Positions 1,257-52,915 of a stretch of 64,000 bases of DNA are shown piece after piece (within the stretch, counting starts at the first letter, position 1; every line of letters starts with the position of its first letter). Both the position numbers and the translations under genes were made by a program. The stretch spans positions 149,229 through 213,228 of the forward strand of contig CAYJOL010000002.1 of NCBI GenBank assembly GCA_964371785.1, in the 5' to 3' direction. The stretch comes from an uncultured Ignavibacteriales bacterium. GTDB taxonomy: Bacteria; Zixibacteria; MSB-5A5; GN15; FEB-12. The notes under the pieces are model-generated. The model was given only the letters and a program-made list of their open reading frames with translations, had not been told where the DNA came from and searched no databases.

Positions 1257-2563
1257 AAAAAATCCTTTTGATCCTATCGGCGCTGATGGTAGCGGGACCC
1301 GCCAGGTCGTATGCGCGGGAAATCAGTTTAGCGCAGGCGATGGAGCTTGCGCGGGAGCATTCGTTTGCTCTCAAGAAAGCGACCGCGCAGAGCTACGCAT
1401 ACGAACAGAATCTGAAGGCAGCGGTCGCTGAACGCTTCCCGACTCTGTCGCTGGCGAGCGCCGCCAGTTATAAGAACAAAGTGGCCCATCTGGAAATTCA
1501 GTTCCCCACCGGTCAGAGCTTGAGCCGGGAGATTGGCACCAAAGATGTGTATCAGGCCGATCTCAGGTTGAATCTTCCGCTGTTCACGGGGGGAAAGATT
1601 TCCAATGGCATCGGACTCGCCGGCGCTACACGTGATTACTACGATGCCCTCAAGAACGCGGACCTCAACCAACTTCTGCTGACTACACGCGTAGCTTATC
1701 TCTCGCTCTACAAGGCGGACAAGGAGATTGCAACTGCCCAGGCCGGACTCGACCGGGCCAGAGTAATGCGCACCGATGTTCAGTCCCTGTATGACGCCGG
1801 GTCGGCCGATTCGGTTGATATACTCGAAGCGACCTTCGCCGCGACCAGCGCGCAGATGAAGCTGACGACCGCCCAGAGCAATCGCCGCCAGAGGGAAATT
1901 GAATTGTCGACATTACTGGGGATCGATCCACAGGACCAGTTGACAGTCACCGACACACCTCAACCACCCGACACTTCATCGTACACATATTCCGGTATCA
2001 CCTCTGCCAAACCGGAATTAATGGTCGCAAAATCGTCTGTCGAGATGAGTAAGAAGCTGACGTCAATGAATAAGTCCGACTACTTCCCCACCCTCAGCGC
2101 TTTTGGCGGCTACTCATACGGCAAGCCGAACATCGATCAGTTCAATAACACCTTCAATGATTATTTCATTGTCGGAGCCAGTCTTAATTGGTCGTTCAAT
2201 GTCGGCGGGAAGTCGGTGCGTAAGGTAGCCATGGCTCGGCTTCAGTCGCGAGCGGCTGAGGATGCCTACGATGCCGTGCATGAGCAACTCGATGAACAGG
2301 CACGTGTGGCGCTGGAGAATCTCAGGCTCACGTACCAGCGGTACCAGACTTCGCTCGTCAACTTCAAAATTGCGTCGGATAATTATCGTCTGGCACATGA
2401 GAAGTACGCGCAGGGGGTGTTGCCGTCAAATCGTCTGCTTGAGATCGAGGCCTCGTTGAGCGAGGCCGAAGCTACGCTGGCATCGACACAGGTAGACTTC
2501 TATATCGTTGCCAGCCAATACTACTACATTATCGGATCAGACAAATTAGAGGAAGGTCTGTAA
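1253..2563 (+). CDS. outer-membrane efflux protein (TolC-like OMF)
   Basis: Signal peptide, two coiled-coil halves and OEP-like repeats. Start overlaps the tetR stop (ATGA). Confidence 0.75.
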   Translation: MKKILLILSALMVAGPARSYAREISLAQAMELAREHSFALKKATAQSYAYEQNLKAAVAERFPTLSLASAASYKNKVAHLEIQFPTGQSLSREIGTKDVYQADLRLNLPLFTGGKISNGIGLAGATRDYYDALKNADLNQLLLTTRVAYLSLYKADKEIATAQAGLDRARVMRTDVQSLYDAGSADSVDILEATFAATSAQMKLTTAQSNRRQREIELSTLLGIDPQDQLTVTDTPQPPDTSSYTYSGITSAKPELMVAKSSVEMSKKLTSMNKSDYFPTLSAFGGYSYGKPNIDQFNNTFNDYFIVGASLNWSFNVGGKSVRKVAMARLQSRAAEDAYDAVHEQLDEQARVALENLRLTYQRYQTSLVNFKIASDNYRLAHEKYAQGVLPSNRLLEIEASLSEAEATLASTQVDFYIVASQYYYIIGSDKLEEGL

Positions 2564-2564
2564 T

Positions 2565-3449
2565 ATGAAGCGAATTTACTTACTCTTGAGCGCGTTGACT
2601 GTTTTCGGCCTGGCGGGCTGCTCGCAGGAGGCTCAGAAGGCCGGCGGTTCAGGAATGTTGGAAGCGGATGAGTCGATTATCTCTGCCGAGGTTCAAGGAA
2701 GAGTGCTGTTGATGCGGTTCGACGAAGGGACCCAGTTTAAGACCGGAGATACATTGCTGGTCGTAGATACTACCAACCTGCGACTTCAACTTGCCGCCGC
2801 GCAGGCAAGCCGCGACGCCGCGTCGGCACAACTGGAAAGCTCAAAGCTCCAGTACAAGAAAGCGAGCGAGACCGAGAAATACGCCCAATCCGAACGCAAC
2901 CGTGTGGCGACCTTGTTGAAATCTGGGACATCGACCCAGCAGAAGCTCGACCAGTTGGATCATGATCTGGCGCAGGCGAAGCTGAGTCGTCAAACCGCTC
3001 AGGCGAATATTACGGCGCTTGAAGCCCAGCTCAGTAAGATCGACGCTGATATCAATCTGATACATCAGCATCTCGACGACTGTTTTCCGACCGCTCCCAT
3101 AACAGGTGTTGTGACGGATAAGTATATCGATAAGGGTGAACTCCTGGCCCCCGGTAAGGCAATTGCCAAGATCTCCCGGCTTGACTCCCTCTGGGTGAAG
3201 GTCTATCTGCCGGCAGGCCTCTTCGCGAATGTGAAACTGGGCGACTCTGCCACTGTCAACACGGAATCAGGCGGCAAAGAGTATCGGGGACGAGTAGTCT
3301 GGACATCGGACGAGGCCGAATTTACGCCCAAGAATGTCCAGACCGAGAAGTCGCGCGCAAATCTTGTGTACGCGGTAAAAGTCCGGATGGCGAACAGCGA
3401 TGGTACGCTGAAAATCGGAATGCCGGTGTTTGTAACGATTGGTGAGTGA
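2565..3449 (+). CDS. HlyD-family membrane-fusion (periplasmic adaptor) lipoprotein
   Basis: Lipobox LAGCS, a long coiled-coil (QLAAAQASRDAASAQLE...), and a C-terminal beta-barrel domain. Resembles YbhG. Confidence 0.75.
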   Translation: MKRIYLLLSALTVFGLAGCSQEAQKAGGSGMLEADESIISAEVQGRVLLMRFDEGTQFKTGDTLLVVDTTNLRLQLAAAQASRDAASAQLESSKLQYKKASETEKYAQSERNRVATLLKSGTSTQQKLDQLDHDLAQAKLSRQTAQANITALEAQLSKIDADINLIHQHLDDCFPTAPITGVVTDKYIDKGELLAPGKAIAKISRLDSLWVKVYLPAGLFANVKLGDSATVNTESGGKEYRGRVVWTSDEAEFTPKNVQTEKSRANLVYAVKVRMANSDGTLKIGMPVFVTIGE

Positions 3450-48638: not shown

Positions 48639-50030
48639 CTATTCAGGAGTGTCTGTAATGTCGTGGGGACCCTGGTCCAGATCACAAATGAAATACCGAA
48701 TCTTGCCCGATTCCTCCCGGGGAAGTTCATTGACCGATTCGATAGTAATCTCGATCTGGGGAGAAATCAGCCGATGCATTACACTTCGAATGTGTGCCCT
48801 GATTTCATCGGTGACCGGTGGGTCATTGGTGACCAGAAGATGGAAGTGAGTAAGCGATTTCTGTCGGTACTGGATCTGGCCGAGAACGGGGCCGGTTTCG
48901 GCAATTGTTGCTGACAAGGCAAGCGCCGAGTGCTTTGTTCCGTCGGGCGCCACATACCGATCGAGCATTCGACCGACACCGGCGCTCATCAGGGAAAGAC
49001 TGCGGCCGCACGAACAGGTTTCGGTCATTCGGCAACCATAATCTTCGACCGCATATCTTATCAAGGGGAAGCCATAATTGGTGAGATCGGTAATCAGGAT
49101 TTCACCTTCTGTTTCATCCGGCACCGGGACATTACTGTGAACGAACTCGACGAACGATGTCTCCATGGAAATGTGCAATCCTCGGCGACGGCCACATTCA
49201 CAAGCGGTGTTCCCAACTTCGCGCGAACCATACATATTGTAGGTTGGGGCCCCAAAGAGCCGCAGGAACTTCTCCTTGTGATAGGCGTGCAGGGTCTCGC
49301 CAGTGGACATCACCGCTTTTACTTGTGGTGGCTGGTATCTATGGGCATCGATAAACTCGGCAAATCGGTCGAGGGCATTGGGAAACACCTTGAGGTACTC
49401 GGGCCCGAAAGCAGTCGCTTTCCGATAGAACTGCTCCAACGTCTCTTCCGAAGCCGCGCCGGCATACAGCATAATTTCGCGGGTCAAATATCTGTTTTTG
49501 AAACGGGCGCGTGATGATTCATTCGGGTCCAGATCAATATGCACGGGCCAGACAAAGCACATCTTGTCGCATGGTCGGCGGCCGATGTACCCCTCGAAGC
49601 GCCAGGCCGCGCCCATTTTGATGTTGTGGCTCTCCTGGTCGCGAAAGAGGGCCATCCGGCGGCGCGTTGTACCACCGGTGGCAAACTCGATCAGCTCAGA
49701 ACGCTGAAATTGGGTGGAGAACAGCTCCTGCTGGTGATTTCGAATCAGGTCACGGGTGAGAGTCGGGAGTTTGCGAAGGTCATCGAAATCCTTGAATGAA
49801 TTCGGTGTTAGTCCCCGCTCGTCAAAGACGCGGCGGTAGTATGGGACAGTATTAAAGGCATGCGTCAGCAGCGAATTTAACTTTTGCCATTGATATTCCT
49901 GAAGTTGCCGGAGAGGCCAATATTGGCTTCTTTCGAAGAAGCGCCAGTGCTTGAGCGCCGAACCGCGGTGATCTCGTCGAAGCACCAGTGGTAATGCCAA
50001 ATGACGAAGAGCAAGTGACGAAAGTCCCAT
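48639..50030 (-). CDS. phenylacetate-CoA ligase-like adenylate-forming enzyme (CapK / F390 synthetase family)
   Basis: ATGGTTRRRMALF AMP-binding motif and the PaaK-like C-terminal domain. Confidence 0.55.
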   Translation of the reverse strand: MGLSSLALRHLALPLVLRRDHRGSALKHWRFFERSQYWPLRQLQEYQWQKLNSLLTHAFNTVPYYRRVFDERGLTPNSFKDFDDLRKLPTLTRDLIRNHQQELFSTQFQRSELIEFATGGTTRRRMALFRDQESHNIKMGAAWRFEGYIGRRPCDKMCFVWPVHIDLDPNESSRARFKNRYLTREIMLYAGAASEETLEQFYRKATAFGPEYLKVFPNALDRFAEFIDAHRYQPPQVKAVMSTGETLHAYHKEKFLRLFGAPTYNMYGSREVGNTACECGRRRGLHISMETSFVEFVHSNVPVPDETEGEILITDLTNYGFPLIRYAVEDYGCRMTETCSCGRSLSLMSAGVGRMLDRYVAPDGTKHSALALSATIAETGPVLGQIQYRQKSLTHFHLLVTNDPPVTDEIRAHIRSVMHRLISPQIEITIESVNELPREESGKIRYFICDLDQGPHDITDTPE

Positions 50031-50219
50031 CTACTGACCTTACCTGCTTGTTCTGGCAACCTCGCTTATCTGACTGTTCACCTTCAAGGGTGAACGCCAC
50101 AAACCATCGCCAGGGCCTGGTTCGAACTGTCTTCAGCCAAAATAGTGATTAATAGCTACAATCGCCATAAAACATAACCGGCTGACGGCGGACGGTCGGC
50201 GTCCACAGGATATTAGCCC

Positions 50220-50247
50220 TTGACAATGCAGATATATTTAGTATATT
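50220..50247 (+). promoter_or_regulatory. sigma-70-type promoter TTGACA-16-TATATT for the tyrosine-operon leader
   Basis: TTGACA at 50220-50225 and TATATT at 50242-50247 with a 16-nt spacer, about 25 nt upstream of the leader ATG. Confidence 0.55.
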
Positions 50248-50271
50248 TTCACATAGTTAGGCAATCAAACT

Positions 50272-50397
50272 ATGATCACAAGTCAGACCGATATACGTCG
50301 CCTTGACGACCATCTACGTTCGATGGTCAGTTACCAGTACTATTATTACGCCCGCTACACCGGTAGTGGGTGCGGCATGGTCGTGACGACACCATAA
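50272..50397 (+). CDS. Tyr-rich leader peptide (41 aa: MITSQTDIRRLDDHLRSMVSYQYYYYARYTGSGCGMVVTTP)
   Basis: Small ORF between the promoter and the terminator. Six Tyr in nine consecutive codons (UAC CAG UAC UAU UAU UAC GCC CGC UAC). Located 130 nt upstream of aroH-tyrA. Confidence 0.55.
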   Translation: MITSQTDIRRLDDHLRSMVSYQYYYYARYTGSGCGMVVTTP

Positions 50398-50419
50398 AGC
50401 AAGAGTCCATCGGATTTAC

Positions 50420-50458
50420 AGCCCACTATCGGATGATGATAGTGGGCTTTTTTGTTGT
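50420..50458 (+). terminator. intrinsic terminator / attenuator in the 5' leader of the tyrosine operon
   Basis: AGCCCACTATC-ggatgat-GATAGTGGGCT followed by TTTTTTGTTG, 69 nt upstream of the aroH start. An alternative pairing partner, GGTAGTGGG, sits at 50361-50369. Confidence 0.7.
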
Positions 50459-50526
50459 CGGAATTCGGCGGGCGGACCGCCAGACAGAAATCGAAAGCAG
50501 GAACATTTCACAGAGAGGAATAAATC

Positions 50527-50904
50527 ATGAGCAAAGTACGCGGGATCCGAGGCGCCATCAAAATCGAAGAAAACACCAGGGATGCCATCCTGAGTGGGAC
50601 GCGCGAGCTGGTGCTTGCTATGACCGAAGCCAACCATTTTGATCTGGACGATATCGCCGCCGCCTATTTTACGGTTACGGCTGATCTCGATCGTGAATTC
50701 CCCGCCCTGGCGGCGCGGCAGCTCGGCTGGCTGACGGTTCCGATGCTGTGTGCGAGGGAGATCGACGTTCCAGGTTCAATGAAGTCCGTCCTTCGCATTC
50801 TTGTATTGGTAAACACAGAGACTTCGCAAAAAGAAATGGTTCATCAGTTTCTTGGTGAAGCTGCCGGCCTTCGACCTGACCTTCACAACGGAGGCGCTGC
50901 ATGA
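50527..50904 (+). CDS. aroH: chorismate mutase, AroH class (monofunctional)
   Basis: VRGIRGAIKIEENTRDAIL ... is the AroH-type signature; ~125 aa. Confidence 0.75.
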   Translation: MSKVRGIRGAIKIEENTRDAILSGTRELVLAMTEANHFDLDDIAAAYFTVTADLDREFPALAARQLGWLTVPMLCAREIDVPGSMKSVLRILVLVNTETSQKEMVHQFLGEAAGLRPDLHNGGAA

Positions 50905-51794
50905 AGCGTCTTAAGGACATGGTGGTAACGGTAATCGGTCTTGGGCAAATCGGCGGGTCGATCGCCCTCCGGCTGAAACAAAATCGCGCAGCACGGGTGG
51001 TTATCGGTTGTGACAAACGGGCTGCGACCATGGCAAAAGCGATGCGAACCGGCGTTGTCGATGAAACGGTGAATTCTATTACCCGAGCAGTCGCCCGGGC
51101 TGATTTGGTTATCGTAGCCACGCCTATACGAGAGGTCATCAGACTGCTTCCATCGGTCGCAGCGCATATAAGGCCAGAGGCCGTTTGTATCGATGTCGCG
51201 AGCACCAAGACTGACATCGTCAGGATCGCGGAAAGCTTCCCGTGTTTGAACTTTGTGGGCGGACATCCTCTCGCCGGCAGCGAGCAGGAAGGCCTTGAAG
51301 GCGCCACCTTTGAGAAATTCGAGCTTAAGACGTTTGTACTATCCGCGACCTCAAACACCACCCTGAGCGCGACCAGGCTGGCCGGTGAACTGGTCAGGGC
51401 GCTCGGGGCCAAACCTATTCTTATGAGCGCCGAGGACCATGACAGCTGTATAGCTCTCACCAGTGCGGTTCCGCACGCGATAGCGCTGGCCCTCATTCAT
51501 CTTGCTGCCGCACAGTCAGCAACCAAGCACGATATCGAAAAGCTGATCGGCGGAAGCTTCCTTGGCGCTACGCGCGTCGCCCAATCCCCCGTCCACCTGG
51601 TCTCTGATCTCCTGTTGACGAATCGTAAGCCGGCCACCGAGGCCCTGAGACAATTTATCGCCGAGCTTCAAAATCTTAAGAAGCTCTTGAACTCAAGTGA
51701 CAAAGCAGATCTCCGCAACTACATCGCAACGGCCCATAAGACCTCCATGAAACTTCATACTGGTTCGAAACGACGGGAAAGGAGCGGGTCATGA
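50901..51794 (+). CDS. tyrA: prephenate (arogenate) dehydrogenase
   Basis: N-terminal Rossmann VIGLGQIGGSIALRL, the PDH domain, and conserved HPLAGSE. Confidence 0.8.
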   Translation: MKRLKDMVVTVIGLGQIGGSIALRLKQNRAARVVIGCDKRAATMAKAMRTGVVDETVNSITRAVARADLVIVATPIREVIRLLPSVAAHIRPEAVCIDVASTKTDIVRIAESFPCLNFVGGHPLAGSEQEGLEGATFEKFELKTFVLSATSNTTLSATRLAGELVRALGAKPILMSAEDHDSCIALTSAVPHAIALALIHLAAAQSATKHDIEKLIGGSFLGATRVAQSPVHLVSDLLLTNRKPATEALRQFIAELQNLKKLLNSSDKADLRNYIATAHKTSMKLHTGSKRRERSGS

Positions 51795-52915
51795 AGCCCT
51801 CCCAGCGAGTAACGAATCTCGAATTAAGTCCTATCCGTCGGTTCTCCGAGGGTGCGCCAGCGGATGCCATCCCGCTGGCGATCGGTCAGCCAACATGGGA
51901 TCTTCCGGTCGAAGGACAGGAAGCTTTGAGGCGATTCGCCGGAGTGTGTAGTTATGGACCGGGATCCGGCAGTCGGGAGCTTCGTGAAGAACTCGCCGCA
52001 ATGTACCATGCTACATACGATGAGGTCATGATTTCGTCCGGCTCGCAAGGATCTTTGTTTTCGCTCCTTCAGTCATTCGTAAATCCGGGTGAGCGTGTGT
52101 TAATTCCTGATCCGGGTTTCGTGACGTACAGAAACCTTGTGCTCTACTGTGAGGGAATTCCCTGCACATACCCGCTGTCCGCCGCAAATCACTATCGCTT
52201 GAACAAAGAATCAATATTCGAGGCTCTTGACCGGACGAATGCCCGCGTTGTTATTATCAATCACCCGGCAAATCCTACCGGTGGCGGAATGGTATCAGAT
52301 GAGCTCGTGGCAATTGCTGACGAGTGCTTTCGGCGCGATGTCCTTTTGATTTCCGATGAGGTGTACCGCGAGTTGTATCTGGGGGTCCGGCCACCGAGCC
52401 TTCGCGATGTCACTCGGTCCGGGGTGGTGGTAAGCTCGGTTAGCAAAGCATGGGGAGCGCCCGGCCTTCGGGTCGGATGGGCGATCGGCAGTCCCCGCTG
52501 GCTCGAACCCGCCCGTTTGGTGCATGCCTACACTGTCACAAGCGCATCATCTATTTCCCAGCTTGCAGCGACAGCCCTCATAAGGTCATCCGAGTCTATT
52601 CATGTCGCCGCCCGCGAGCAGGTCAAGATCCGATGGACTTCGTTGGCTGCGGCTTTGGACAAGCATCTGCAGATGAAGGCGAGTCCACCCGACGGGGCCT
52701 TCTACTACTGGTTGCCGATCCCCCGGAGTGCGCAGACAGACCCGATGGCCTTCTGTTTTCGTATACGTGATGAAGCCAGGGTGTTGTTAGTCCCCGGCGA
52801 AGCGTTTGGAGCAGGTGGGCGTACCTACGTCAGATTAAGTTATGCCGCGACGCCGGAGCAGATAACTGAGGGAGTGCGTCGAATAGTTCCGTATTGGATG
52901 ACCGACCGGGCCTGA
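51791..52915 (+). CDS. class I/II PLP-dependent aminotransferase (aromatic/aspartate type)
   Basis: PLP-lysine context SVSKAWGAPGLRVGW, the NHPANPTG motif, and operon context with aroH-tyrA. Confidence 0.75.
   Translation: MKPSQRVTNLELSPIRRFSEGAPADAIPLAIGQPTWDLPVEGQEALRRFAGVCSYGPGSGSRELREELAAMYHATYDEVMISSGSQGSLFSLLQSFVNPGERVLIPDPGFVTYRNLVLYCEGIPCTYPLSAANHYRLNKESIFEALDRTNARVVIINHPANPTGGGMVSDELVAIADECFRRDVLLISDEVYRELYLGVRPPSLRDVTRSGVVVSSVSKAWGAPGLRVGWAIGSPRWLEPARLVHAYTVTSASSISQLAATALIRSSESIHVAAREQVKIRWTSLAAALDKHLQMKASPPDGAFYYWLPIPRSAQTDPMAFCFRIRDEARVLLVPGEAFGAGGRTYVRLSYAATPEQITEGVRRIVPYWMTDRA

Follow-up and report, generated by a model that had tools for sequence, protein, structure and literature searches.

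Tyrosine and leader-peptide attenuation

Leader-peptide attenuation is a textbook mechanism for the control of tryptophan, phenylalanine, histidine, leucine, threonine and isoleucine/valine biosynthesis. Tyrosine biosynthesis, in the bacteria studied, is governed by repressors (TyrR) or by T-boxes; in Escherichia coli the tyrosine branch (aroF-tyrA) is under the TyrR repressor, not attenuation. The element described here was found in a 64,000-nucleotide (nt) stretch of contig CAYJOL010000002.1, from an uncultured bacterium deposited as Ignavibacteriales and placed in the Zixibacteria by GTDB; this whole stretch is referred to as the window. The element comprises a promoter, a 41-codon open reading frame (ORF) with a run of tyrosine codons, and an intrinsic terminator, and it precedes an operon for chorismate mutase (aroH), prephenate dehydrogenase (tyrA) and an aminotransferase. 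From its sequence it can be read, with a probability of roughly 80%, as a ribosome-mediated leader-peptide transcription attenuator that would sense tRNA-Tyr charging and thereby control the tyrosine-branch operon.

The architecture is shared with the E. coli trp attenuator (trpL; RF00513). In both cases a promoter-proximal ORF carries adjacent codons for the end product of the pathway, and three overlapping helices, predicted ones in the window, are available: a 1:2 protector, a 2:3 antiterminator and a 3:4 terminator followed by a U-tract. A ribosome stalled at these codons would cover segment 1 and free segment 2. The window element differs from trpL in being keyed to Tyr instead of Trp, in its length (41 codons against 14) and in its occurrence in uncultured lineages, one of them labelled Zixibacteria, whereas trpL belongs to the Proteobacteria. 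Moreover, the ORF of the window extends across segment 2 to an end 22 nt short of the terminator, so that segment 2 would stay exposed while a ribosome sits at the stop codon. The E. coli pheA attenuator (pheL) applies the same logic to the sister branch, on chorismate mutase / prephenate dehydratase; the amino acid and the operon are different.

The nearest published case that was found is the aroR leader of Corynebacterium glutamicum, located upstream of aroF (DAHP synthase), with the regulatory triplet Phe-Tyr-Phe (PMC4046766; PMC11802643). This attenuator is reported to respond when Phe is limiting but to be indifferent to Tyr supply, in a study that also notes repression of DAHP synthase genes (PMC11802643). 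It carries one Tyr codon between Phe codons and controls the common-pathway DAHP synthase, not tyrA.

At the RNA level, tyrosine genes are regulated by T-boxes in Firmicutes (PMC1262725). The same comparative study, which dealt with Actinobacteria, reported that tyrosine operons there have no RNA element in front of them; for other species it cited T-boxes as regulating tyrosine genes at the RNA level. The Tyr T-box leaders of Firmicutes (RF00230) have the same signal, tRNA-Tyr charging, and the same output, a choice between terminator and antiterminator, as are proposed for the window element. In contrast, the T-box senses by direct RNA-tRNA contact without translation, while the window element has a Tyr run to be translated and neither a specifier loop nor a T-box sequence.

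No description of a Tyr-keyed leader-peptide attenuator was found in the full-text literature searched, a body of text that leaves most subscription journals outside its coverage. The first-pass annotation of this DNA had called such an arrangement rarely described, which was, if anything, a cautious wording. Taken as a whole, the sequence features support well a familiar mechanism of the trpL/pheL/hisL type, keyed to an amino acid for which such an attenuator was not found described. To a specialist it would be a neat extension, more or less to be expected, and hardly a surprise.

The leader ORF and its alternative helices

A promoter of the form TTGACA-16-TATATT was indeed present where the first-pass annotation had placed it, with 11 of 12 consensus matches, and it was the top promoter-like site of the scanned 4-kb region (coordinates of all features are given in Table 1). 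Transcription would start near 50254, about 18 nt upstream of the leader AUG. The ORF behind it, for which the name tyrL is proposed, holds six Tyr codons within nine (codons 21, 23, 24, 25, 26 and 29), as had been noted. It had also been called unannotated, which does not hold entirely: more than 20 public contigs from this organism carry the 41-amino-acid ORF as an unnamed gene call with an identical peptide.

The six frames of the window were scanned for small ORFs (1317 of 8-70 codons), with a T-tract sought within 120 nt. The leader ORF was the only one among them that combined at least four Tyr, Phe or Trp codons in seven with a nearby T-tract (score 5/7). When ORFs of up to 90 codons were admitted and the T-tract condition was dropped, it was again the sole match in the window. 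Tyr accounts for 3.4% of the residues in the window's long ORFs.

The leader's stop codon was confirmed to lie 22 nt before the stem of a strong intrinsic terminator. The terminator hairpin, AGCCCACTATCG-GATGA-TGATAGTGGGCT (50420-50448), has 12 base pairs (bp) and a 5-nt loop, and TTTTTTGTTGT / UUUUUUGUUGU comes next. Its arms are named segments 3 and 4. Segment 2 is located within the leader ORF, in codons 30-34, and can pair either with segment 3 or with segment 1, which begins at the last base of Tyr codon 26. A near-copy of the terminator 3' arm, GGTAGTGGG, had been reported after the Tyr run; it is present, at 50362-50370 and not at 50361-50369. As had been proposed, it could pair with the terminator 5' arm as an antiterminator that excludes the terminator.

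Three overlapping, alternative helices were obtained when the leader was folded. Helix 1:2 joins 50349-50358 with 50363-50372 (10 bp, -16.9 kcal/mol). Helix 2:3, the antiterminator, joins 50361-50371 with 50421-50431 (11 bp, -27.9 kcal/mol for the enclosed region). Helix 3:4, the terminator, joins 50420-50431 with 50437-50448 (12 bp, -19.5 kcal/mol). The antiterminator prevails whenever segment 2 is free, so termination needs an occupied segment 2. For the leader ORF paired with the terminator 5' arm, a duplex energy of -18.5 kcal/mol was calculated; it was matched by 1 dinucleotide shuffle in 2000 and, in a second set, by 2 in 1000. The leader as a whole was predicted to be more stably folded than its shuffles (z = -4.76).

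Related loci, geometry and covariation

Relatives were found by chorismate mutase scans, and the third lineage by a protein search seeded with locus L020. The comparison set comprises eight distinct loci in three lineages: the window with L001, L002 and L019; L020; and L114, L118 and L119. Between lineages the AroH proteins are 55-67% identical. Within the window's own lineage, L001 (deposited as an Ignavibacteriales metagenome-assembled genome, MAG), L002 (deposited as a Zixibacteria MAG) and L019 (a JGI metagenome contig) show 79-83% AroH identity to the window and have the same divergent AMP-dependent ligase and the same aroH-tyrA-aminotransferase operon. Each has a leader of 40 codons, MHLNQTDNRMVEPIDRSNYYRSYYYACSCGGGSGMDVMKP in L001, MSLFQRKIVSRPVINRSNYYRYYYCTRFSGGGYAPGLCLT in L002 and MLLNQTDIKMVDRIDQSNYYRDYYYTRSCGSGYGLDVMKP in L019. 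In L020 (AroH identity 58%) the leader MNSPKALLSASVSNYWYRYYYSIADSGMRSY stands upstream of aroH-DAHP synthase-tyrA-DUF4159. In the third lineage the leaders MNMYAHHIGFQPGYGSRYYRYYYYYNRQNDGGLAEFSSMR (L114, identical to L115), MNMYAHHIGFQPGSGSGYSSYYYYYYYRQNDGGRTKLFAFR (L118) and MNMYARHIGFDSGYSSDYSRYYYYYRRNDGGQRRFLAYR (L119) all stand upstream of aroH-DAHP synthase-tyrA.

Conservation of the element upstream of aroH and tyrA, which had been suggested as a check, was borne out: each of the seven further loci has the promoter, an ORF with a Tyr run, the 2:3 pairing and the terminator, always in front of aroH...tyrA. All eight loci have the promoter form TTGACA-16-TAT(A/C)(T/C/A)T, an AUG-initiated ORF that reads the Tyr run in frame, and segments arranged in one and the same order. 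The ORFs contain 5-9 Tyr codons, up to seven of them consecutive in L118, a run that resembles the seven His codons of the hisL leader. Every one of the eight operons contains tyrA, and in none was a prephenate dehydratase seen.

The geometry is nearly fixed. The leader ORF has 39-41 codons in all loci except L020, where it has 31, and the distance from the stop codon to segment 3 is 23-24 nt, again with the exception of L020 (36 nt). The distances from the run's final Tyr to segment 2 (7-13 nt) and from segment 2 to segment 3 (48-51 nt), the terminator loop (3-7 nt) and the T-tract (T6-T9) are kept without exception. The sequence between the segments is poorly conserved. The sequences of segments 2, 3 and 4 differ by lineage, yet they change in concert: they read GGUAGUGGG / CCCACUAUC / GAUAGUGGG in the window, GGUGGUGGG / CCCACUGCC / GGCAGUGGG in L001, GACAGCGGG / CCCGCUGUC / GACAGCGG in L020 and GAUGGUGGG / CCCGCCAUC / GAUGGCGGG in L114.

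Covariation was counted in an eight-sequence MAFFT alignment (A5), in which the stems of L020 were set one or two columns off register; nearly all unpaired cells of helices 2:3 and 3:4 come from this locus. For the 2:3 helix, 94.3% of the cells were paired, 5 of its 11 pairs had changed on both sides, and its covariation score of 0.425 (0.316 in shuffles) was attained by 2 of 500 shuffles; slid controls gave 25-64% paired cells. When a hand-anchored motif search was used, all 45 pairs of this helix were canonical in the five loci placed in correct register. For the 3:4 helix, 91.7% of the cells were paired, 6 of 12 pairs had changed on both sides, and the score was attained by none of 500 shuffles. 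In each of the eight loci, no more than 4 of 1000 dinucleotide shuffles matched the complementarity that the leader ORF has to the terminator 5' arm. RNAalifold, run blind, returned the terminator and a 5-bp core of the 1:2 helix (CCGCN/NGUGG) in all eight.

The Tyr codons UAU and UAC replace each other between loci while Tyr is retained, which argues for selection on decoding and not on an RNA motif. Selection on the leader thus appears to act on the meaning of the codons rather than on the bases. Reading the Tyr run in its other frames, as ACU-AUU-AUU (Thr-Ile-Ile) or as CUA-UUA-UUA (Leu), was ruled out, since only the Tyr frame stays open after a conserved AUG in all of the loci.

It is highly improbable that the 41-amino-acid product is itself the functional entity, either as the precursor of a modified peptide or as a trans-acting one, with the hairpin as its constitutive or leaky terminator and aroH expressed from a second promoter or through what read-through is left. 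The ORF has threefold the length of trpL or pheL and is gene-called in public data, its N-terminal residues are partly kept within clades (xxQTDI/N for the clade of the window, MNMYAHHIGF for that of L114), and trans-acting leader peptides are documented, for example peTrpL (PMC7298713). However, a profile of the leader peptide searched against 5.8 billion proteins returned only the window's own peptide, small-ORF gene calls being too sparse for tracing a family, and Pfam gave no family match. The conservation of the C-terminal half is accounted for by RNA segments 1 and 2, and the conserved codons 5-7 of the L114 clade pair with segment 2. A plain terminator would leave unexplained a covarying copy of its 3' arm, 11-13 bp long, inside the ORF, and the promoter scan detected no second promoter between terminator and aroH. 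A role of the peptide in trans alongside attenuation is possible.

Folding with a ribosome on the leader

The leader was folded with the ribosome at each A-site position, keeping a footprint from -15 to +13 nt unpaired and taking the minimum-energy fold of the whole leader. In the window the antiterminator fold was obtained solely with Tyr24, Tyr25 or Tyr26 in the A site, and the terminator at all other positions, including Tyr29 and the stop codon; the terminator also formed when the ribosome was absent. The switch falls on Tyr24-26 because a ribosome there covers segment 1 and ends just before segment 2, which starts 11 nt after codon 26. The folding check of terminator against antiterminator, which had been suggested, came out in favour of the proposal. 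When segment 4 was treated as not yet made, segment 3 paired with segment 2 in all five loci tested.

On this basis the following course of events is proposed. A ribosome would translate the 41-codon leader while RNA polymerase moves on, the two being coupled. With ample Tyr-tRNA, the ribosome would pass the Tyr codons and segment 2 and reach the stop codon; segment 2 would be captured behind it by the adjacent segment 1, and segment 3 would be left free for segment 4, so that the 12-bp hairpin and the U-tract would end the transcript near 50454. With scarce Tyr-tRNA, the ribosome would stall with Tyr23-26 in the A site (codons 23-26, 50338-50349, are the proposed stall sites), its footprint lying over segment 1 and just short of segment 2. 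Segment 2 would then take segment 3 on its emergence, the terminator would be blocked, and read-through into aroH-tyrA-aminotransferase would follow. If the leader were not translated, 1:2 and 3:4 would both form, leading to termination. In vivo, the operon would be expected to respond to tyrosine supply accordingly.

Several observations weigh against this proposal. The first group concerns translation of the leader. The Shine-Dalgarno-like sequence of the window is a weak AGG 9 nt upstream of the AUG, and none is obvious in L001 and L019; L114 and L119 have GAGGA/GGAGA about 10 nt upstream. In L020 (2719-2755) the leader AUG stands 6 nt past the -10 hexamer TATATT, the 5' untranslated regions of the other loci being about 17-27 nt long, and attenuation there would require translation from a leaderless or nearly leaderless mRNA. 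A precedent for an absent site is offered by the ilvB leader of C. glutamicum, whose peptide is formed without a ribosome-binding site, as cited in PMC4046766.

The second group concerns the helices. The equilibrium fold flipped at the Tyr codons in only three of the eight loci (window, L019 and L001), and the other five stayed terminated; the switch in these five rests on a kinetic, co-transcriptional argument. Attenuation being kinetic, we do not count them against the model. Conservation is lowest for the full 1:2 helix, with 74% of its cells paired and no significant covariation, and the L114 clade replaces it by a distal pairing of segment 2 with ORF codons 5-7 (GCC CAC CAC). Furthermore, the window ORF runs eight codons past segment 2, which a ribosome at the stop codon would leave unmasked; termination under Tyr sufficiency therefore depends on rapid re-formation of the 1:2 hairpin behind the ribosome, which we infer to take place. 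Finally, eight sequences, several of them close relatives, afford limited statistical power.

Some of these observations would also fit a real switch that is set by a protein, by uncharged tRNA in the fashion of a T-box or by a small-molecule riboswitch, with the ORF incidental. Several loci have a weak ribosome-binding site or none at all, five of the eight lack the equilibrium flip with the ribosome on the Tyr codons, and the leader is unusually structured, as its z score indicates. We consider this quite unlikely, since all eight loci retain an AUG-initiated ORF of near-constant length with an in-frame Tyr run and a stop codon whose distance to segment 3 is fixed, and since the UAU/UAC interchange fits selection at the codon level. 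The poorly conserved sequence between the segments shows no obvious ligand pocket. Rfam scans of the window and the seven related loci gave nothing that reached the gathering score, whether T-box, riboswitch or other family, the leader families Trp_leader, Phe_leader, His_leader, Leu_leader, Thr_leader and PyrG_leader included. The best sub-threshold matches, PyrG_leader (25.8 bits, threshold 65) and Trp_leader (14.2 bits, threshold 41), align to the terminator hairpin only, and T-box, Phe_leader and His_leader had no match in 49800-50800 even at E values up to 10.

The footprint scan bears equally on whether the signal is specific to tyrosine. Placing the ribosome on the first 7-10 codons likewise yielded the antiterminator fold in L019 and L119, and so long a leader would also respond when other amino acids encoded before segment 1 run short. 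In C. glutamicum the Phe-Tyr-Phe codons of aroR failed to predict the full response, reported as being to Phe only and not to Tyr (PMC11802643). The element might then be a general attenuator of translation stress or growth rate, or a case of Rho-mediated polarity, in which any slowing of the leading ribosome raises read-through. This is very unlikely, given that a run of 3-7 Tyr codons is the one feature common to the three lineages at 7-13 nt before segment 2, where other residues vary, and that the regulated operons always contain tyrA. An analogous leader on a common-pathway enzyme, described below, mixes Tyr and Phe, as fits a codon content that tracks the pathway product. Tyrosine-specific, ribosome-mediated attenuation is the reading retained.

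Loci without the element and other aromatic leaders

In six of seven looked-up contigs (P0004, P0007, P0132, P0157, P0129 and P0126) a supraoperon trpCFBA-aroH-DAHPS-tyrA-aroA was found, with aroH-DAHPS-tyrA fused directly behind trpA; in the seventh (P0167 / L109) aroH follows a trpA remnant. None of these seven relatives has a Tyr leader, and where aroH-tyrA is embedded in the trp supraoperon there is no gap; they served as negative controls.

The supraoperon arrangement, behind trpC/F/B/A and with overlapping genes, was seen in L099, L101, L107, L108, L110-L113 and L116 (aroH at 2001-3001 in each), some of these being MAGs labelled Zixibacteriota. In the complete genome CP070796.1 (L109, 2265-2508) an 80-amino-acid trpA remnant alone precedes aroH, which suggests a recent break-up of the supraoperon. 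Another locus, L102 (P0010), has a 46-codon ORF at 2760-2900, MEPNLITDIYHQRRTEYVCQGRYCVGCCGYCRRDSGRSALTAPV, with scattered Tyr and Cys codons and no Tyr run. A TTGACA-17-TATACT promoter stands before it and a terminator-like hairpin after it, with aroH-PDH-DUF4159 downstream; this possibly diverged attenuator was left out of the count of eight loci.

A whole-locus scan revealed a different leader in nine Dehalococcoidia/SAR202 loci (L003, L005, L006, L007, L011, L013, L014, L016 and L017). Here a TTGACA promoter precedes a Tyr/Phe-rich ORF of 25-29 codons, for example MRVSNRYAYYYFYFTGPTAAGEGQVRGT, with type I DAHP synthase directly downstream (in L003, ORF at 152-238 and terminator at about 277-300). 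The leader segment CCCAACGGCUGCCGG is complementary to the loop and 3' arm of the terminator GACCUCAACCGG...CGGUUGGGGUCUUUU. A ribosome footprint flipped the fold to the antiterminator at Tyr7-Phe12 in L003 and at Tyr9-Phe12 in L005. No Rfam match was obtained for this leader, which looks like an independent aromatic-amino-acid attenuator. The aroR leader of C. glutamicum is functionally nearer to it than to the window element. Tyr-only runs before the Tyr branch and mixed Tyr/Phe runs before a common-pathway enzyme are what codon-sensing attenuation predicts.

On balance, the window element is probably the founding example of a hitherto undescribed tyrosine-specific attenuator family, tyrL, which would have a near-fixed geometry upstream of aroH-(DAHP synthase)-tyrA in at least three uncultured lineages, one labelled Zixibacteria, and an independent Tyr/Phe counterpart in Dehalococcoidia/SAR202. 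If this is true, ribosome-mediated sensing of tRNA-Tyr is real and phylogenetically scattered, and it was missed through its absence from model organisms. A Tyr-keyed attenuator would extend the mechanism to candidate phyla without genetics, and the Dehalococcoidia parallel suggests that searches for a codon-run ORF with a terminator in uncultured phyla would yield more attenuators. Equal spacing with different stems in three lineages would constitute a natural experiment on spacing versus sequence in attenuator function. The part of about 240 nt could possibly serve synthetic biology as a sensor of Tyr-tRNA charging, and as an aid to annotation it would mark the downstream aminotransferase as tyrosine-related.

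Operon and gene neighbourhood

Table 1. Features of the tyrL locus and nearby hairpins; positions are those of the window unless another locus is named.
Feature	Position	Strand	Description
Sigma-70-type promoter	50220-50247	+	-35 TTGACA 50220-50225, 16-nt spacer, -10 TATATT 50242-50247
Leader ORF (proposed name tyrL)	50272-50397	+	41 codons, peptide MITSQTDIRRLDDHLRSMVSYQYYYYARYTGSGCGMVVTTP
Regulatory Tyr codons (proposed)	50332-50358	+	UAC(21) CAG UAC(23) UAU(24) UAU(25) UAC(26) GCC CGC UAC(29)
Segment 1, anti-antiterminator 5' arm	50349-50358	+	CGCCCGCUAC
Segment 2, partner of segment 1 or segment 3	50361-50371	+	CGGUAGUGGGU
Segment 3, terminator 5' arm, common to antiterminator	50420-50431	+	AGCCCACUAUCG
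Segment 4, terminator 3' arm	50437-50448	+	UGAUAGUGGGCU
U-tract of intrinsic terminator	50449-50458	+	TTTTTTGTTG, then T; U6 directly after stem
Small hairpin, window	50467-50481		GGCGG-GCGGA-CCGCC
Small hairpin, L019	about 2329-2345		CCCGAAGUNCGGG
Small hairpin, L001	about 2966-2982		CCCGAAGUNCGGG
Small hairpin, L002	about 2964-2977		CGCGGAACCCGCG
Shine-Dalgarno of first structural gene	50513-50519	+	GAGAGGA; GAGAGGAG conserved in alignment
AroH-type (CM_1) monofunctional chorismate mutase	50527-50904	+	PF07736 5e-41; TIGR01796 114.9 bits (cutoff 82); first gene of operon
Prephenate (or arogenate) dehydrogenase TyrA	50901-51794	+	PDH_N + PDH_C; start overlaps aroH stop
Class I/II pyridoxal phosphate (PLP) aminotransferase	51791-52915	+	PF00155 1.8e-50; start overlaps tyrA stop

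The chorismate mutase / prephenate dehydrogenase / aminotransferase operon predicted by the first-pass annotation was recovered through the domain matches CM_1/TIGR01796, PDH_N with PDH_C, and class I/II aminotransferase. Its first gene does follow the T-tract; the aroH ATG lies 68 nt after position 50458, and the 69 nt given earlier needed correction. For TyrA, the NCBIfam prephenate dehydrogenase models match below their cutoffs.

The aminotransferase is a candidate for the last step to tyrosine. Its top NCBIfam match was the guanitoxin GntC cyclodehydratase model (224 bits, cutoff 415), and generic aspartate/aromatic aminotransferase models scored lower. The operon context suggests chemistry on prephenate, 4-hydroxyphenylpyruvate or arogenate, and homology does not settle the substrate.

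The divergent upstream gene (48639-50030, minus strand) encodes a PaaK/CapK-like AMP-dependent ligase, whose best NCBIfam match, the DVU_1553 family, was below cutoff. Since this gene keeps its position in L001, L002 and L019, the 240-nt divergent region probably holds the ligase promoter as well. Between the terminator and the aroH Shine-Dalgarno sequence, every locus of the window clade has a small GC-rich hairpin, which varies in sequence and position (Table 1).

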